A stretch of 50,455 nucleotides of DNA, from positions 1 to 50,455 of the forward strand of contig MHOT01000001.1 of the NCBI GenBank assembly GCA_001820175.1, in the 5' to 3' direction. The translations under genes and the position numbers were made by a program. Each line of letters opens with the position of its first letter. Position 1 is the first letter of the stretch. The notes under the pieces are model-generated. The model searched no databases, had not been told where the DNA came from, and saw only the letters and a program-made list of their open reading frames with translations. Shown here piece by piece: positions 8,716 to 38,386 of this stretch. The DNA comes from Candidatus Staskawiczbacteria bacterium RIFCSPHIGHO2_02_FULL_42_22 (GTDB taxonomy: Bacteria; Patescibacteriota; Minisyncoccia; Minisyncoccales; Staskawiczbacteraceae).

Positions 8716-9279
8716 TTATATTTTGACTCCGCCGTGAGTTTCCATAAATTCTTTAAAACTTTTGCTACTGGAATCTTTTGGCGAAACGATTGGTATGTCT
8801 TTTAGTTGCCAATCAATATTTAGGTCTGGGTCATTCCATTTTATTTGATATTCTGATTCTGGGGAATAAGGGTTATCCATTTTGCAAATTGCCATGGCAT
8901 TGTCGGTAAGAGAGCAAAAAGCATGGGCGAATCCACGGGGTATGTATAGCATTTTTTTATTTTCCGTGGAAAGTATCGCACTGGCCCATTGGCCTAAGGT
9001 TGGGGAATCTTTTCGCAGGTCCACGAAGACATAGAGTGTTTCTCCGTAAATGACCCGTACTAATTTGGCTTGGGCATAGGGTGGCAACTGTAAATGCAAG
9101 CCGCGGATGGTGCCTTTTTTTAATGAAAAATTTTGATATTCTTTCACCCATATGGTATCAATGCCATGCTCCTTGAAAACCCTATCATCATATGTTTCCA
9201 TTAAAAATCCGCGGAAATCTTCCCTGGCTTCCAGCTGGATTTCAAAAACCCCCCTGATACTCGTTGCTTTAATGGTCAT
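8716..9279 (-). CDS. rfbC: dTDP-4-dehydrorhamnose 3,5-epimerase
   Basis: DFRG, RGLHLQ, KLVRV, VDLRKDSPT, PRGFAHAF. Confidence 0.93.
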   Translation of the reverse strand: MTIKATSIRGVFEIQLEAREDFRGFLMETYDDRVFKEHGIDTIWVKEYQNFSLKKGTIRGLHLQLPPYAQAKLVRVIYGETLYVFVDLRKDSPTLGQWASAILSTENKKMLYIPRGFAHAFCSLTDNAMAICKMDNPYSPESEYQIKWNDPDLNIDWQLKDIPIVSPKDSSSKSFKEFMETHGGVKI

Positions 9280-9327
9280 GATAGTATTTTATTTTCTAAA
9301 ATATTGCTATAATTTGAAGTAATTAAA

Positions 9328-9876
9328 ATGAATTTCCCTCATGATATTGATATTTCGAAGCTTTCAGGGCAGGAAATCAAGAATCTTGCGGTTTTACTTT
9401 TGAAAAAAATCGCAAAGAGTTATGATCCAAAGAAAGGGATGGGGGTAGAGCTTTTTAATGCTATTGCAAAACTTAAAGTAACCATGACGCCAGAAGCCGT
9501 ATGTTTGAGGTATAATTCCCAAAATGATAAAATTGAAGTATATCTTATACTGCGTTCATTAACCGATACGGCTTATCCTGGCCAGTGGCACTTGCCTGGT
9601 TCAGCCGTGCGTCCAGGTGAAGAAATTGATGATGTTTTTTTACGTTTGGAAAAAAATGAGATAGGTATTCGCATACTATCAAAAAAATTTGTTTTTCATT
9701 CCAATAATCCCACAGAACCAAGAGGGCATTTTTTTTCTTTGATTTTTCTTTGTGTACTTGATAGCGGGGATGGTTATGGTAAATGGTTTTTTGTAGATGA
9801 TCTTCCCGAAAACACCTTAATGCGTCATCGTAGTGTGATTATTCCTGCTATGGTGAAGGAATTTATGCAGAGTTGA
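9328..9876 (+). CDS. NUDIX hydrolase with a GDP-mannose mannosyl hydrolase-like box
   Basis: WHLPGSAVRPGE..FLRLEKNEIG variant Nudix box. Confidence 0.7.
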   Translation: MNFPHDIDISKLSGQEIKNLAVLLLKKIAKSYDPKKGMGVELFNAIAKLKVTMTPEAVCLRYNSQNDKIEVYLILRSLTDTAYPGQWHLPGSAVRPGEEIDDVFLRLEKNEIGIRILSKKFVFHSNNPTEPRGHFFSLIFLCVLDSGDGYGKWFFVDDLPENTLMRHRSVIIPAMVKEFMQS

Positions 9877-9892
9877 TGGGTATTGGAATGTA

Positions 9893-10612
9893 CTATTTTT
9901 CTTTATTTTTCATAAATTCCGCGGATTCGAACAATGTTTTAAAAGTCCCCGCATCAGACCAAAAGCTTTTTAAATTCTCATAAGTTGCCGTTCCTTGCTT
10001 GATGTAGAAATTATTTACGTCAGTGATTTCAAGCTCACCTCTTTTAGAGGGTTTTAATGTTTTAATGATGTCGAACACTTGACTGTCGTACATATAAAGT
10101 CCACTGCAGGCCATGGGGGACTTTGGCTGGCTGGGCTTTTCCTCAATCCCTACTAATTTTCCTTGGTTAAATTCTCCGATACCAAACCGATGGGCGTCAG
10201 TAACTTCTTTGAAAAAAAGTTTAGCTCCTTTTTCCTGATGTTTGAAGTTTTCTACGTGTTCTGTCATATTTTCATCAAATATATTATCCCCCAATAAAAC
10301 CACGATCTTATCATGTTCTGCAAAATCTTCTGCCAAACCAAGGGCTTGGGCTATGCCGCCAGAACCTTCCTGGTATGCAAAACGAATTTCCCGCAAGGCG
10401 AATGATTTTCCATTCTTAAGAAGCCGAAGAAAATCTCCCGGATTATTTCCACCCGTTACAATGAGCACATCTTTAATTCCGGCGGCCGCTAAAGTTTCCA
10501 GAGGATAATAAATCATAGGTTTATTATATACCGGCAATAAATGCTTATTGGTAACCATGGTAAGAGGTAGAAGTCTTGTTCCATTACCACCGGCCAAAAT
10601 AATTCCTTTCAT
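9893..10612 (-). CDS. rfbA: Glucose-1-phosphate thymidylyltransferase (short form)
   Basis: ILAGGNGTRL.P, KHLLPVYNKPMIYY, LGDN, RGELEITD. Confidence 0.9.
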   Translation of the reverse strand: MKGIILAGGNGTRLLPLTMVTNKHLLPVYNKPMIYYPLETLAAAGIKDVLIVTGGNNPGDFLRLLKNGKSFALREIRFAYQEGSGGIAQALGLAEDFAEHDKIVVLLGDNIFDENMTEHVENFKHQEKGAKLFFKEVTDAHRFGIGEFNQGKLVGIEEKPSQPKSPMACSGLYMYDSQVFDIIKTLKPSKRGELEITDVNNFYIKQGTATYENLKSFWSDAGTFKTLFESAEFMKNKEK

Positions 10613-11721
10613 ATGTTATATTGTTTTTTATAATATTCTAAGTATTCGCCGGTTTTTATTTTTTTCCACCAAGGTTCATTTTGAGTGTACCATAAAATAG
10701 TTTCCCTAATGCCGTCTTCAAACTTTATCTTGGGACTCCATTCCAGTTCGCGAGTTATTTTTTCCGGGTCAAGCAAATAACGCTTATCATGCTGAGGCCT
10801 ATCAGGAACATATGTTTTTAACGTGTGTGGTTTATGTAATATATTTAAAACAATATCGGCGATTTCTTCTATTGATTTTTCAACCAAAGTGCCTATATTA
10901 TATGATTCTCCAATTTTCCCATCTCTTAAAATTATATCAATTGCTCCGCAGTGATCCAAGACATGAATCCATTCTCTGCGGTTCTGACTACTTTTAAAAA
11001 GTGGCAATGGTTTATTTTCTAGCGCATTTGTTACAAATAGGGGGATTATTTTTTCTGGAAATTGATAGGGTCCGTAATTATTAGCGCAGTGGCTAATAGT
11101 TACAGGTAAGTGATAGGTATGGTAATAAGCCATTACGATATGATTTGACGCAGCCTTTGATGCGTTATAGGGAGTTTTAGGAGCATATGGATCAGTTTCT
11201 TTAAACATTTTTTTTTCATCAAGCTCCATATCTCCAAATACCTCACACGTTGATATATGATGAAAACGTTTTATGTTTGCGTCTTTCACTGCTTCTAAAA
11301 GAATTTGAGTGCCCAGTACATTTGTTTTTACAAAAATCCCCGGATCCATGATAGCGCGATCGTTATGCGATTCGGCGGCAAAATTCACAACCCAATCTAT
11401 TCCTTCTAATGCCCGTCTAACTGTTTTGTAGTCTGTGATATCTCCCTTGATAAATTTGTAATTGCTGTTACGTTCAACACCGGTTAAATTTTCAAGATTA
11501 CCTGCATACGTTAAAGCATCATAATTAATAACAGTATCATCCGGATATTTCCCAAGCCAATATTTTATAAAATTAGATCCGATAAACCCAGCACCACCTG
11601 TTACTAAAACTGTTTTATTTCCAGCAGATTCATTGTCATTCAAGTTATCTGACAGGTGGTGCTGGGTAAAGCCGGCCCCCCCTGTTACGATTATTTCTTT
11701 ACTCTTGGGTTGATTAGGCAT
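10609..11721 (-). CDS. rfbB: dTDP-glucose 4,6-dehydratase with a duplicated TGGAGF motif
   Basis: TGGAGFIGSN, LTYAGN, FAAESH, YNASKA, YGPYQFPEK; start moved to ATG 11721 because upstream codons run through a REP and the promoter. Confidence 0.93.
   Translation of the reverse strand: MPNQPKSKEIIVTGGAGFTQHHLSDNLNDNESAGNKTVLVTGGAGFIGSNFIKYWLGKYPDDTVINYDALTYAGNLENLTGVERNSNYKFIKGDITDYKTVRRALEGIDWVVNFAAESHNDRAIMDPGIFVKTNVLGTQILLEAVKDANIKRFHHISTCEVFGDMELDEKKMFKETDPYAPKTPYNASKAASNHIVMAYYHTYHLPVTISHCANNYGPYQFPEKIIPLFVTNALENKPLPLFKSSQNRREWIHVLDHCGAIDIILRDGKIGESYNIGTLVEKSIEEIADIVLNILHKPHTLKTYVPDRPQHDKRYLLDPEKITRELEWSPKIKFEDGIRETILWYTQNEPWWKKIKTGEYLEYYKKQYNI
11586..11667. repeat. ACCC(A/C)GCACCAC hairpin element inserted in-frame in rfbB
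   Basis: Perfect 16-bp inverted repeat ACCCAGCACCACCTGT/ACAGGTGGTGCTGGGT. Confidence 0.85.
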
Positions 11722-11751
11722 CAATTGATTTTTAGGCGAATAAATTATATC

Positions 11752-11780
11752 ATAATATAATAATTTTGTATTCATTGCAA
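11752..11780 (-). promoter_or_regulatory. Sigma70-type promoter for the rfbB operon
   Basis: Minus strand TTGCAA-17 bp-TATTAT. Confidence 0.5.
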
Positions 11781-11785
11781 TGTGT

Positions 11786-11979
11786 GTAACCCCTTCACAC
11801 CTCGTGCGCATTCCTGTCGTCATTGCGAGGAGCAGCGACCGCAATCGTGGACGACGTGGCAATCTAAACAAGAGTGACGATGGGATTGTCCCGATGGCTT
11901 TGTGCCATCGAGGATCCTCGATCTCATCGGGACTTCGTCACCCGCGTGCGCATCGCAATGACGGAGCGTGAGGGGTTAT
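11786..11979. repeat. Composite: GTAACCCC..CAC/GTGAGGGGTTA shell, REP 11818-11963, nested TCGAGGATCCTCGA module 11888-11933
   Basis: Three concentric inverted repeats visible in the sequence. Confidence 0.85.
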
Positions 11980-21511: not shown

Positions 21512-23227
21512 ATGATAAAAGAGAATACGTTTAAAATCATATTTTTTACTATAGCCATTTTTTTCCTGGCGGGTTTTACTGTTCCCGCAAAAGCCGCAAA
21601 CATTTCAGATGTCTTTTTTAACGTAGATGCGAATTTCGATGTCGGTGAATCATCTCAAGTCCAGGCCGTTCTCATTAAAACTGCCGCTAATCTCTATTTT
21701 TATGTCCAAAAGGACTGGTGGGAGGCGCAGGTTCCCGCCAAGCAAAGTGAAATTATAAATAATCTGGACGTTTTATCTTCTGAGTTTGATAAAAAGATAT
21801 ACCCGACATTGACTTCGGTATTTGGTTCTGAGTGGAACCCGGGAGTTGACGGTGACAGCAAGACCATTATTTTATTCCATGCTATGAAAGAGGGGGTCGG
21901 AGGATATTTTCGCTCCAACGACGAATACATCAAATTACAGATGCCAAATTCCAATGAAAAGGAAATGTTGTATTTGCCAATTTCACAGATTGATAACATC
22001 TCTAAGTTAAAAGTTTTTTTGGCGCACGAGTTTGTCCACCTTATTACTTTCAACCAAAAAGATCGATTGCGGGGAGTCCAGGAAGACGTTTGGTTAAATG
22101 AGTCTCGTGCCGAATACGCAGCAACTATTTTAGGATATAACGGTTTGTATGAGGGCAGTAATTTACAGGCGCGCTTGAAAAATTTTTTAGAAAGGCCGTC
22201 TGATTCGCTGGTCGAGTGGAAGGAAAATAAATATGACTACGGAGTTATTAATGTGTTCATGCATTACTTGGTTGATCACTACGGTATCAATATGCTGTCG
22301 GACTCGCTCCAGTCCCCGTTAACCAGTATTGCCAGCATCAACGCGGTCCTGGCAAAAAACGGGTATCAAGAAGATTTCTCCCAAATTTTTACCAATTGGG
22401 CAATTGCCCTTATGGTTAATGATTGCAAGGTTGGGCCGAAATACTGCTACTTGAGTAGCAATTTAGCAAATTTTAAAATAAATCCTACGCTTAATTTTCT
22501 GCCGCTGTCGGGCTCAAGTTCCCTGTCAGTAACCAATGTTACTAAAAATTGGGCTGGCAATTGGCAAAAAATTATCGGGGGGAAGGGGGATTTAACCTTG
22601 GAATTTTCGGGCGTCAAGGGGGTCCATTTTCAGGTGCCGTATGTTGTTGTCGATAAAGAAAATGTCTCGACAGTTCATTTTTTAGCGCTTGATGAAAACC
22701 AAAAAGGGAAAATATTCATTAAGGACTTTGATAAAAATAATAATGCATTAATTATTATCCCATTGCTTGAAGATAAAACGAGCGGTTTTTCTAATTCGGA
22801 ATTTACCTACCCCTACACCTTTAAGGTATCAATTTCCGGCCAGGTTCAAGAGGATGAAGCGGCATTGATTGAATCGCTCTTGGCCCAAATAGCTTCTTTA
22901 AAACAGCAGATCGCGGCGCTTCAGTCAGGCGAGCCCAAAAACCCCCTTGCGGTTTCCTGCTCGTCAATTACCGGCAACCTTTATATTGGCATGACTGGCA
23001 GCCAGAAAGTAACGTGCCTCCAAGAGTTTTTGAAATTACAGGGCGGGGCCGTGTATCCGGAAGGACTGGTAACGGGAAATTTCGGAGCCCTTACGCGCCT
23101 GGCCGTAGTGCGTTTTCAAGAAAAATATGCCAGTGATATTTTGGCTCCATTGGGGCTTTCTTGGGGCACTGGATTTGTGGGGTCGTCGACTCGCCAAAAA
23201 ATTAACCAGCTCTTGCAAGTAATGTAA
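21512..23227 (+). CDS. Secreted zinc metallopeptidase with a C-terminal peptidoglycan-binding domain
   Basis: Signal peptide ending AKA, AHEFVH (HExxH), WLNE; C-terminal LQEFLK..TGNFG.LT..AV.RFQ. Confidence 0.75.
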   Translation: MIKENTFKIIFFTIAIFFLAGFTVPAKAANISDVFFNVDANFDVGESSQVQAVLIKTAANLYFYVQKDWWEAQVPAKQSEIINNLDVLSSEFDKKIYPTLTSVFGSEWNPGVDGDSKTIILFHAMKEGVGGYFRSNDEYIKLQMPNSNEKEMLYLPISQIDNISKLKVFLAHEFVHLITFNQKDRLRGVQEDVWLNESRAEYAATILGYNGLYEGSNLQARLKNFLERPSDSLVEWKENKYDYGVINVFMHYLVDHYGINMLSDSLQSPLTSIASINAVLAKNGYQEDFSQIFTNWAIALMVNDCKVGPKYCYLSSNLANFKINPTLNFLPLSGSSSLSVTNVTKNWAGNWQKIIGGKGDLTLEFSGVKGVHFQVPYVVVDKENVSTVHFLALDENQKGKIFIKDFDKNNNALIIIPLLEDKTSGFSNSEFTYPYTFKVSISGQVQEDEAALIESLLAQIASLKQQIAALQSGEPKNPLAVSCSSITGNLYIGMTGSQKVTCLQEFLKLQGGAVYPEGLVTGNFGALTRLAVVRFQEKYASDILAPLGLSWGTGFVGSSTRQKINQLLQVM

Positions 23228-38281: not shown

Positions 38282-38386
38282 ACCCCGCACCACTTTCACT
38301 AAATAATGATAAGCAGGTTTCATAGCATTGTTAGCTAAAAAGTATTATAAACACATCTTAAATATCTTGTGAAAGTGGTGCGGGGT
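38282..38386. repeat. ACCCCGCACCAC hairpin element at a promoter -35 box
   Basis: Perfect 18-bp inverted repeat ACCCCGCACCACTTTCAC; TTGAC present on both flanks. Confidence 0.85.

Follow-up and report, generated by a model that had tools for sequence, protein, structure and literature searches.

A short hairpin element in a patescibacterial rfbB gene appears to rebuild the nucleotide-binding motif that it interrupts

Results

This work concerns an 82-nt insert in rfbB, the gene of a dTDP-glucose 4,6-dehydratase, within a stretch of 50,455 nucleotides (contig MHOT01000001.1; hereafter the window, meaning this whole stretch) from the 821-kb, 30-contig genome of an ultra-small groundwater bacterium of the Patescibacteria type, Candidatus Staskawiczbacteria bacterium RIFCSPHIGHO2_02_FULL_42_22 (G000). 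The gene lies on the minus strand at 10609-11721, with its ATG at 11721 and its stop ending at 10609, and encodes a protein of 370 amino acids (P0001) in which the insert is read in frame. Our comparisons suggest that the insert is a copy of a family of hairpin elements of the Patescibacteria and that the end of the element writes anew the motif which it splits. In the order of translation P0001 reads MPNQPKSKEIIVTGGAGF, then TQHHLSDNLNDNESAGNKTVLV and then TGGAGFIGSNF, and a repeat search returned the coding sequences of both strand-TGGAGF copies as a direct repeat of 35 nt (71% identity, 84 nt apart). The repeat search also returned, inside rfbB, an inverted repeat whose arms of 16 nt at 11586-11601 and 11652-11667 are 100% complementary and separated by 50 nt. 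Written in the coding sense, the upstream arm is ACC CAG CAC CAC CTG T (T-Q-H-H-L) and the downstream arm is ACA GGT GGT GCT GGG T (T-G-G-A-G plus the first base of a phenylalanine codon), and the spacer codons at 11602-11616 spell KTVLV. The initial annotation of the window was thus accurate in describing a doubled motif (two copies, 28 codons apart), a perfect 16-bp inverted repeat (16 of 16 positions paired), arms that encode TQHHL and the second TGGAG, and a new strand, KTVLV, supplied by the spacer. Allowing up to three mismatches, the 50-kb window holds no match to the rfbB arm beyond these two, and allowing one the 821-kb genome holds no further match; shuffled windows gave a mean of 0.07 arm matches and reached two matches in 0 of 100 shuffles.

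Copy 1 of the motif is formed by codons 1-18 (11668-11721, minus strand), the last two bases of which, AA on the plus strand at 11668-11669 and TT in the coding sense, are bases 2 and 3 of Phe18 and at the same time the first copy of a 2-bp flanking duplication. There follow, all on the minus strand, the upstream terminal inverted repeat ACCCAGCACCACCTGT at 11652-11667, read as T19-Q-H-H-L, whose outer 12 nt are common to the element family described below; an interior of 50 nt at 11602-11651, the last 15 nt of which encode K36-T-V-L-V, the predicted working first beta-strand; and the downstream terminal inverted repeat ACAGGTGGTGCTGGGT at 11586-11601, which encodes T41-G-G-A-G and the first base of F46. 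The second copy of the 2-bp duplication at 11584-11585 completes the Phe46 codon, the new Phe codon being composed of the last base of the element and the duplicated TT. The element is therefore located between two codons, the Phe codon of the NAD-binding motif TGGAGF (GxGxxG type) and the one that follows; it is 82 nt long and carries no gene, and together with the duplication it adds 84 nt, or 28 codons, which are free of stops and keep the frame. Its right end and the 2-bp duplication re-create G-A-G-F, in agreement with the earlier proposal that the motif is rebuilt after its interruption. The only in-frame alternative start within the element is a TTG at 11641-11643, two ATGs in the interior (11637-11639 and 11631-11633) being out of frame.

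That the insert arose as an artefact of assembly in a single data set can be discounted, since contigs of three runs, one of which possibly is the source of the window, span 10900-11746 with 0 differences and 0 gaps. The identical 370-aa protein is recorded on 14 contigs. No contig junction that skips the 84 nt was listed in the runs covering the site, contigs being apt to drop rare variants.

But which of the two motif copies serves the enzyme? The model TIGR01181 matches P0001 with 433.6 bits (cut-off 365.1) over residues 38-355, profile position 2 falling on residue 38, and the Pfam Epimerase domain covers residues 38-277. The invariant columns of TIGR01181 are retained, G42, G45 and F46 among them, and P0001 thus is an RfbB by a match above the curated cut-off together with an intact N-terminal glycine motif. 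Its homologues (119 listed, at most 83% identical) start with M-x-x-(L/I)-V-TGGAGFIGSN, few of them with longer leads, and a second motif within the first 70 residues occurs in 0 of the 119 other homologues listed, where gene calls from an internal ATG may hide elements. A comparison of residues 1-45 with a large protein collection returned only P0001 itself among 83 candidates (lengths 203-648). In an AlphaFold2 model with a mean pLDDT of 83, residues 1-30 score below 50, residues 37-41 form the first strand and residues 46-58 the glycine-loop helix. Because residue 38 is where both TIGR01181 and Pfam begin to match and the first strand of the model lies at 37-41, copy 2, the one encoded by the element, is predicted to be the working N-terminus, and copy 1 to be an appendage, a floppy tail of about 35 residues. 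As there is neither a stop nor an in-frame ATG inside the element, the product most likely is a single protein made from the resident ATG at 11721, with the tail of about 35 residues disordered. The 166-nt RNA folds at -48.5 kcal/mol, as compared to -34.3 +/- 4.2 for shuffles (z = -3.4), with a 16-bp stem possible. A regulatory side-effect of the hairpin may be considered possible.

Uninterrupted counterparts identify the resident part of the gene. In L073, a metagenome contig, the site reads GTA ACA GGG GGG GCC GGC TTT/GTC GGA TCT AAT, that is MSAQSKSKKIIVTGGAGF/VGSNF (here and below a slash between residues or bases marks the junction), and L073 is 93% identical to window positions 11668-11783 over 116 nt, comprising the promoter and the first 18 codons. 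Since L073 has the same promoter and codons without interruption, copy 1 can be identified as the resident N-terminus, and everything downstream from 11667 as added. Beyond this point the RfbB of L073 and residues 35-356 of P0001 share 52% identity, as opposed to 84-93% for the flanking DNA. Homology to L073 resumes at rfbA (9893-10612, minus strand), a glucose-1-phosphate thymidylyltransferase-like gene whose ATG overlaps the rfbB stop (ATGA), and window positions 8771-10613, with rfbA and the gene beyond, are 83.7% identical to L073 over 1867 nt; L073 also has the divergent glycosyltransferase gene (88.7%). RfbB of the L073 type recurs in a genome of the genus, G018 (89% over residues 129-326). 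A search of 24 genus genomes gave no close orthologue of P0001 and, at best, a partial match of 50%; the nearest relatives of P0001 among the homologues listed (83% for P0002, the strongest candidate for a donor-like allele, and 74%) both belong to other Patescibacteria. From the low identity of the body between well-conserved flanks, the recurrence of the L073 type in G018 and the lack of a close orthologue in the genus we conclude that the segment 10614-11667, i.e. the element and the whole rfbB body, replaced the resident body. A second contig type, present in three runs, shares 11667-11746 with 7 differences, predicts MPSQTKSKKII... and departs at exactly 11667. The element probably arrived together with the foreign rfbB allele; since the downstream body is foreign, insertion in place is inseparable at this locus from a joint arrival of element and gene.

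Two observations on these relatives stand apart from this argument. In G018 the stretch of 89% identity (C9:5671-6264, L213) lies inside an open frame of 726 codons whose N-terminal 128 residues are unmatched, and this frame may be an rfbB fusion or another rearrangement. In L073 the interval from the rfbB stop to the rfbA start (about 1835-2072) holds a different hairpin element of about 210 nt with arms of about 27 nt (ATGGACATCATATCCAGAAACCACACT...); L073 thus has a spacer between rfbB and rfbA, which overlap (ATGA) in the window.

The architecture recurs in other members of the short-chain dehydrogenase/reductase (SDR) family, to which the search of relatives proposed by the initial annotation leads: it is found in three further SDR genes (G006, L129 and L153). 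In G006, a genome of the same genus recovered by a DNA search, it precedes a different SDR gene (29% identical), where ATG MKNSKTVLITGGAGF-TQHHLQYKS is followed by a TGA stop and then by GCT ATG MEKLTKRKILITGGAGFIGANF, and the arms, the 50-nt spacing and the 84-nt period all equal those of the rfbB copy. The G007 orthologue of this SDR gene (59% identical) is uninterrupted and reads MDVKNKKVLITGGAGF/IGANFVYKFL, and copy 1 of G006 is 85% identical to the G007 N-terminus over 41 nt. The other two are rfbB genes: L129, labelled Magasanikbacteria, reads MHLLVTGGAGF-TQHHLSWFIKKY, a stop, and then MRLLITGGAGFIGSNF, and L153, from other Patescibacteria, reads ...CAGF-TQHHL, a stop, and then MIRVLVTGGAGFIGSNY. 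In these three of the four SDR genes the remnant is ended by a stop and followed by a restart at an ATG of the element, and in this the window copy differs. A fifth copy of the SDR type, L098, is not in an SDR gene; it follows closely on the stop of a reading frame that resembles LexA (named by eye from its translation). The downstream arm is the same in G006, L129 and L153 and has one inner-base change (T for C) in L098, unlike the resident copy-1 codons, which vary in every genome. Alignment revealed no homology among the interiors of the five SDR-type copies. Judging by L098, the sequences suggest that the SDR subtype moves as a unit, the alternative being remodelling after insertion with the arms staying complementary.

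An in-frame copy outside the SDR genes defines the size of the duplication. At C12:67046-67151 (the inverted-repeat pair itself at 67047-67150) G000 has 35 open codons, SSTTFTKKSFFLKGGFFGKNNVDYKKVSSVKVVLD, in a histidine-phosphatase/PGM-like gene (66795-67481, plus strand), just before the conserved RLREIDFG. The orthologues in G008 and G012 are uninterrupted (...KFDKRLREISFG...), most of the other orthologues in the genus align as two abutting pieces, and in G001 and G014 this phosphatase site holds a reduced hairpin whose core is 36 nt long. Relative to the empty site G000 has the 35 extra codons and exactly 2 extra flanking bases, and because the empty site lacks exactly those bases the duplication is taken to be 2 bp.

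How widespread is the family? A scan of one genome per species over the whole collection gave at least 120 rows, and 80 loci were read. Most rows from outside the Patescibacteria were, among the matches listed, chance matches rich in GC whose arms extend inward by 0-1 nt. When copies were required to show 16 or more arm matches out of 18 and a local GC below 0.6, the census came to at least 42 unique copies, nearly all of them from Patescibacteria. Of these, 27 were contributed by 26 of the 80 loci that were read, a further 9 by other loci and 6 by the genome itself, in which six of nine candidate pairs have extended arms (C1 twice, C5, C12 and C23 twice). The short form with exact ends occurs in 3 of 401 genomes of the phylum, G000 included. 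Family members share the outer 12 nt ACCCAGCACCAC (variants ACCCCGC and ATCCAGC), have terminal inverted repeats of 16-18 nt and mostly are about 100 nt long. In the 42 copies the arms pair over 18 nt and beyond that at chance level, and the inner positions are paired by different bases: T-A (21 copies), C-G (13) and G-C (5) at position 13, G-C and A-T (15 each) at position 14, C-G (17) and A-T (13) at position 15. In 29 of 42 copies the two flanking dinucleotides agree with each other, as opposed to about 1 in 16 expected, and the duplicated 2 bp are variable (TT, TA, TG or CA). By context, five of the 42 belong to the SDR subtype with the inner arm CCTGT or CCTAC, four of these in SDR genes; nine lie at the G/FT codons of pilin genes (seven by pattern, two by eye); and eight have T/TGAC at one junction. 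On these sequence features the rfbB insert is best classed as a non-autonomous copy of this hairpin element family.

The consensus over the 84 flanking half-sites is G-G-(G or A)-T, two variable bases, ACCC, with T at -3 in 67 of 84 and G at -4 to -6 in 35, 38 and 31 (background G 22%), and the individual target sites found are GGN-TTT-AC in pilin genes, GGN-TTT-AT in SDR genes and GGGTTGAC in -35 boxes. Owing to the enrichment of T at -3 and of G at -4 to -6, the preferred target looks like GGGT-NN-ACCC, that is, like two element ends facing each other. The target GG(C/G)TT(T/G)A given in the initial annotation agrees with this consensus, and the inverted repeat at 38282, which had been called related, indeed is of the same family: this second copy in the window (38282-38386, inverted repeat 38283-38385) has the arms ACCCCGCACCACTTTCAC, paired at 18 of 18 positions, and the flanks TG/TG.

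Some family copies lie on promoters. The copy at 38283-38385 sits on a TTGACA -35 box before a sigma-factor-like gene, and another with the arms ACCCCGCACCACTTTCAC (C5:7072-7174) sits on a TTGAC(A/C) -35 box before infA. At both sites the -35 hexamer is rebuilt by the duplicated TG and the element end, with a 17-nt spacing to TAAACT or TAGTAT, and the two interiors are unrelated. In the pilin copies (two genes on C23 of G000, two copies each in G041 and G014, and L091 and L113) a short original leader M...K-G-F-T is followed by the element, and a new ATG-led leader inside the element ends in (E/K)SGAG/FT and runs into the pilin. The two C23 copies (22307-22411 and 22888-22989) lie in neighbouring type IV pilin genes, each at a G/FT codon; in one of these genes the old leader GTG-KIKKGF stands upstream and the new leader MKKLFNLRNNHKKESGAG/FTIIELL comes from inside the element.

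What could move such elements is suggested by a longer relative. When the 401 genomes of the phylum were searched for the same ends 245-305 nt apart, a nuclease-bearing copy with exact ends was found in one of them, G049 (L196). This copy has the ends ACCCAGCACCACTTTT and the flanks GGGTTTAC in common with the family and is laid out as K-G-F-T, ACCCAGCACCACTTTT, ATG MYYVYTLISK... and ...SEWKSGAG/FTLLEVLL, its open reading frame containing a GIY-YIG domain at 1-75 (Pfam, E 1.7e-16) and the pilin N_methyl motif at 90-111; the NCBIfam match of the nuclease is weak and below the cut-off, and PDB gave no sequence match. The longer copy thus encodes a GIY-YIG nuclease and not a transposase, and because it has the same ends the gene-less copies can be seen as the shorter kin of an element that bears a nuclease. 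GIY-YIG homing enzymes such as I-TevI make a 2-nt staggered cut, and a 2-bp duplication would fit such a cut. Rfam searches of the rfbB-copy and G049-copy loci gave no meaningful match, the best being eukaryotic families at E 0.8-0.9. G000 itself has one small stand-alone GIY-YIG gene (C10:27929-28183), the product of which (85 aa) is 42% identical to the G049 nuclease over 64 aa.

Upstream of rfbB, a promoter-like site TTGCAA-17-TATTAT at 11752-11780 (minus strand) precedes the ATG at 11721 and is kept in L073; it is a consensus match alone, and shuffles yield 1.7 such sites. The promoter region 11723-11780 recurs with 84% identity in another species of the genus (G015:C32:22717-22774, L024), before an unrelated SDR gene (35% identical). 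The stretch 11785-11975, which lies between the divergent glycosyltransferase gene and rfbB, is GC-rich (55-57%, about 37% around it) and is absent from L073; it is made up of dispersed repeats, which recur as dozens of partial copies across many contigs of the genome, and holds hairpins of the type CGTCATTGCGAGG...CCGCAATCG.

Discussion

We put the probability at about three in four that the rfbB insert is an 82-nt non-autonomous copy of a hairpin mobile-element family of the Patescibacteria which rebuilds the rfbB motif. According to this proposal, the element end GGT GCT GGG T and the duplicated TT would write G-A-G-F again, and in the SDR subtype the adjoining interior would also write a hydrophobic first beta-strand and the T-G. 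The downstream gene would thereby begin with a complete Rossmann N-terminus, and the original N-terminus would be left, together with the upstream arm (TQHHL...), as an appendage. In the pilin type the element would instead supply a new ATG-led leader ending in SGAG/FT. A GIY-YIG nuclease acting in trans may move the copies, its cuts being made at targets that resemble GGGT-NN-ACCC. The rfbB copy would have entered the locus with a foreign allele by recombination or by homing-like repair, with one cross-over in the motif or in the element and a second one at rfbA, and the enzyme is presumed to be active despite the insert.

Several observations weigh against this interpretation. The requirement for 16 of 18 arm matches partly builds in the pairing figures of the census, and equal flanking dinucleotides are missing in 13 of its 42 copies. 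The inner arm is TTTC in the pilin type and CTGT in the SDR type, the link between the two being 12-13 identical outer bases and a common architecture. The nuclease-bearing copy is known from the one genome among the 401 sampled; in G000 neither a transposase nor a nuclease with ACCCAGCACCAC ends was found, and the small GIY-YIG gene on C10 is bracketed by two other long inverted-repeat pairs (e.g. AGACCTACTGCGTAAAG...) and not by such ends. The low pLDDT of the N-terminal residues is to be expected, as the AlphaFold2 alignment has 0 rows over residues 1-35. The beta-strand borne by the element has an origin that our proposal leaves unexplained, and since the interiors are unrelated between copies, the SDR subtype could have arisen several times or have been remodelled after insertion. 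Finally, the empty site of L073 is not isogenic, its gene body being different; the alignment of empty alleles called for by the initial annotation gave uninterrupted sites in L073, G007, G008 and G012.

Could the doubled motif be a mere scar of recombination, by which a foreign rfbB was joined at the TGGAGF codons and the inverted repeat is incidental or a by-product of illegitimate joining? The divergence from L073 does span exactly 11667 to the rfbA start at 10613 between the conserved flanks, and the second contig type of the three runs also departs at 11667. In G006, however, the 84-nt structure precedes a body that is orthologous to the uninterrupted gene of G007, with FIGANFVYKFL identical after the site, so that no replacement is needed there and the element is independent of replacement; in addition, the same ends and 2-bp duplications are found in pilin genes, in the phosphatase gene and in promoters. 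We thus consider a scar improbable and read the replacement of the body, which appears real, as the route of arrival rather than as the maker of the repeat. The duplication might also have formed locally, by fold-back or template switching within one gene, and a perfect inverted copy of 16 nt at a distance of 50 nt is a possible product of template switching. This explanation, named in the initial annotation as the one that would hold if the pattern were unique to this gene, has hardly any likelihood left: the same arms, spacing and position recur across genomes and in different gene families, together with duplicated flanks and empty sites, and the same ends are carried by at least six copies in this genome and at least 42 overall. 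The same architecture in other genomes argues, in line with the initial annotation, for an element rather than a local duplication.

Another explanation places the function in cis: the remnant would be an upstream open reading frame and the hairpin, by pairing with codons 41-46, would tune the translation of surface genes (glycan, pilin). Such a leader would account for the covariation of the inner arm positions, which implies that pairing is maintained, for the RNA fold (z = -3.4), for the succession of short open reading frame, stop and new ATG in three of four SDR genes, and for targets that mostly are surface-related genes. Yet there are copies within the phosphatase frame, past lexA and on -35 boxes, where this role would be senseless, close relatives manage without the element, Rfam holds no matching family, and the covariation fits equally well a single-strand DNA hairpin that is recognised by a nuclease; we regard a regulatory leader as unlikely. 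The insert might finally be removed or skipped at the level of RNA or of translation, by splicing or by ribosomal bypass between GGN-TTT sites. Identical G-F take-off and landing codons flank the hairpin, and stops intervene in the pilin copies, as this would require, but removal is unneeded where the rfbB frame is open and the other copies carry an in-frame ATG, and no intron-like family was matched in Rfam. To our knowledge, moreover, the lengths of the copies, about 80-300 nt, exceed those of known bypass gaps, which we count against ribosomal bypass, and we give removal very little weight. Three further candidates were ruled out: a DNA uptake sequence, as 821 kb hold no more than about a dozen arms; an inverton acting as a phase switch, as spacers of 50-80 nt are too short and the leader reading frame has one orientation; and an element of the insertion sequence (IS) type IS200/IS605, as both flanks are duplicated and the ends are long-range rather than subterminal hairpins.

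How does the element compare with known systems? Rickettsia palindromic elements (RPEs) are of about 150 bp, each encode a conserved peptide and are present in many copies per genome, as far as the cited account goes (PMC10969869). As described in that part of the account, they are like our element in being small palindromes that lie in frame in unrelated genes and are read through, the protein apparently being spared (PMC10969869); the 28 stop-free codons in rfbB and the 35 open codons of the C12 copy are in-frame insertions of this type. Different from the RPEs with their conserved peptide (PMC10969869, in part), our element has conserved ends, a free interior and a specific site (G-F codons, TTGAC), and the lack of conservation among the interiors argues against a conserved encoded peptide as in RPEs. 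Moreover, the end of our element duplicates the meaning of its target, and the cited passages on RPEs do not mention motif rebuilding, a codon preference or a link to a nuclease (PMC10969869). The hosts are unrelated as well, and it is by the partial description cited that we set the two apart (PMC10969869).

[quoted passage not shown] It differs from MITEs in that no IS-type transposase partner was found and the sole gene-bearing relative carries a GIY-YIG nuclease; in that its arms covary, so that pairing matters and not sequence alone; and in that the 2-bp duplication is variable.

Selfish DNA at a conserved site of a host gene, with the product of that gene left intact, is also seen in the homing endonuclease genes of introns and inteins. 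In contrast to these, where healing takes place at the RNA or protein level, the element described here would heal by DNA redundancy, the interrupted codons being repeated. Co-conversion of flanking DNA, as in homing, is possible and would explain the foreign gene body. Pilin genes and rfbB would not fare alike in this respect: the extra part of a pilin would be trimmed by a host peptidase, whereas nothing trims the appendage of a cytoplasmic Rossmann enzyme, and unlike the pilin copies the rfbB copy must also supply a structural beta-strand, rfbB being mechanistically the harder target.

The closest parallel to a GIY-YIG gene between hairpins is provided by the Ssn proteins, small stand-alone, single-domain GIY-YIG single-strand DNA nucleases (CDD family cd10448) with NTS/SRM hairpin repeats, as the cited portion of the source describes them (Chenal et al. 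2025, PMC11893778). There too a tiny GIY-YIG gene is bracketed by hairpin repeats that also occur gene-less throughout the genome (same portion, PMC11893778). The degenerate SRM pattern given there (PMC11893778, in part) has 0 matches on either strand, whether in our element, at 38283 or across the whole window, and within that portion SRMs are not described as residing at a fixed codon or as rebuilding coding motifs (PMC11893778). GIY-YIG genes are also known from insertions in rRNA genes of the Candidate Phyla Radiation, for which the passages cited describe no such ends (PMC11270868). In the literature outside subscription journals we found no description of patescibacterial pilin or SDR genes that carry hairpin or GIY-YIG elements.

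Conclusions

Mobile DNA that enters a gene normally knocks it out, and the exceptions heal by RNA, as introns do, by protein, as inteins do, or are tolerated, as RPEs are. Here the healing would be written in the ends of the element, where the split codons are repeated. Judged by sequence comparison, what our analysis would add to an RPE- or MITE-like, nuclease-associated intragenic hairpin element is the choice of site and the rebuilding of the motif. More tentatively, and with the balance of probability still against it, this may represent a distinct life-style of selfish DNA, in which a nuclease-associated element homes to conserved short motifs (G/FT, GxGxxG-F, -35) and carries a spare copy of what it interrupts, at next to no cost, serving as a portable cross-over point at which whole downstream genes, in the present case one for a surface glycan, are swapped between distant lineages. 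If this is true, the spare copy would cover the motif, the first beta-strand, the start codon and the leader. The rfbB insert would give a concrete example of selfish DNA carried in essential motifs by very small genomes. For annotation there is a warning in this, as N-terminal extensions and small upstream open reading frames before SDR and pilin genes of Patescibacteria can be remnants of such elements. What we find most worth noting is that the element would restore a cofactor-binding motif by its own end and that its position coincides with the junction at which a glycan gene was swapped. This suggests that such elements mark, and may help to make, the junctions at which alleles for glycan synthesis are exchanged.

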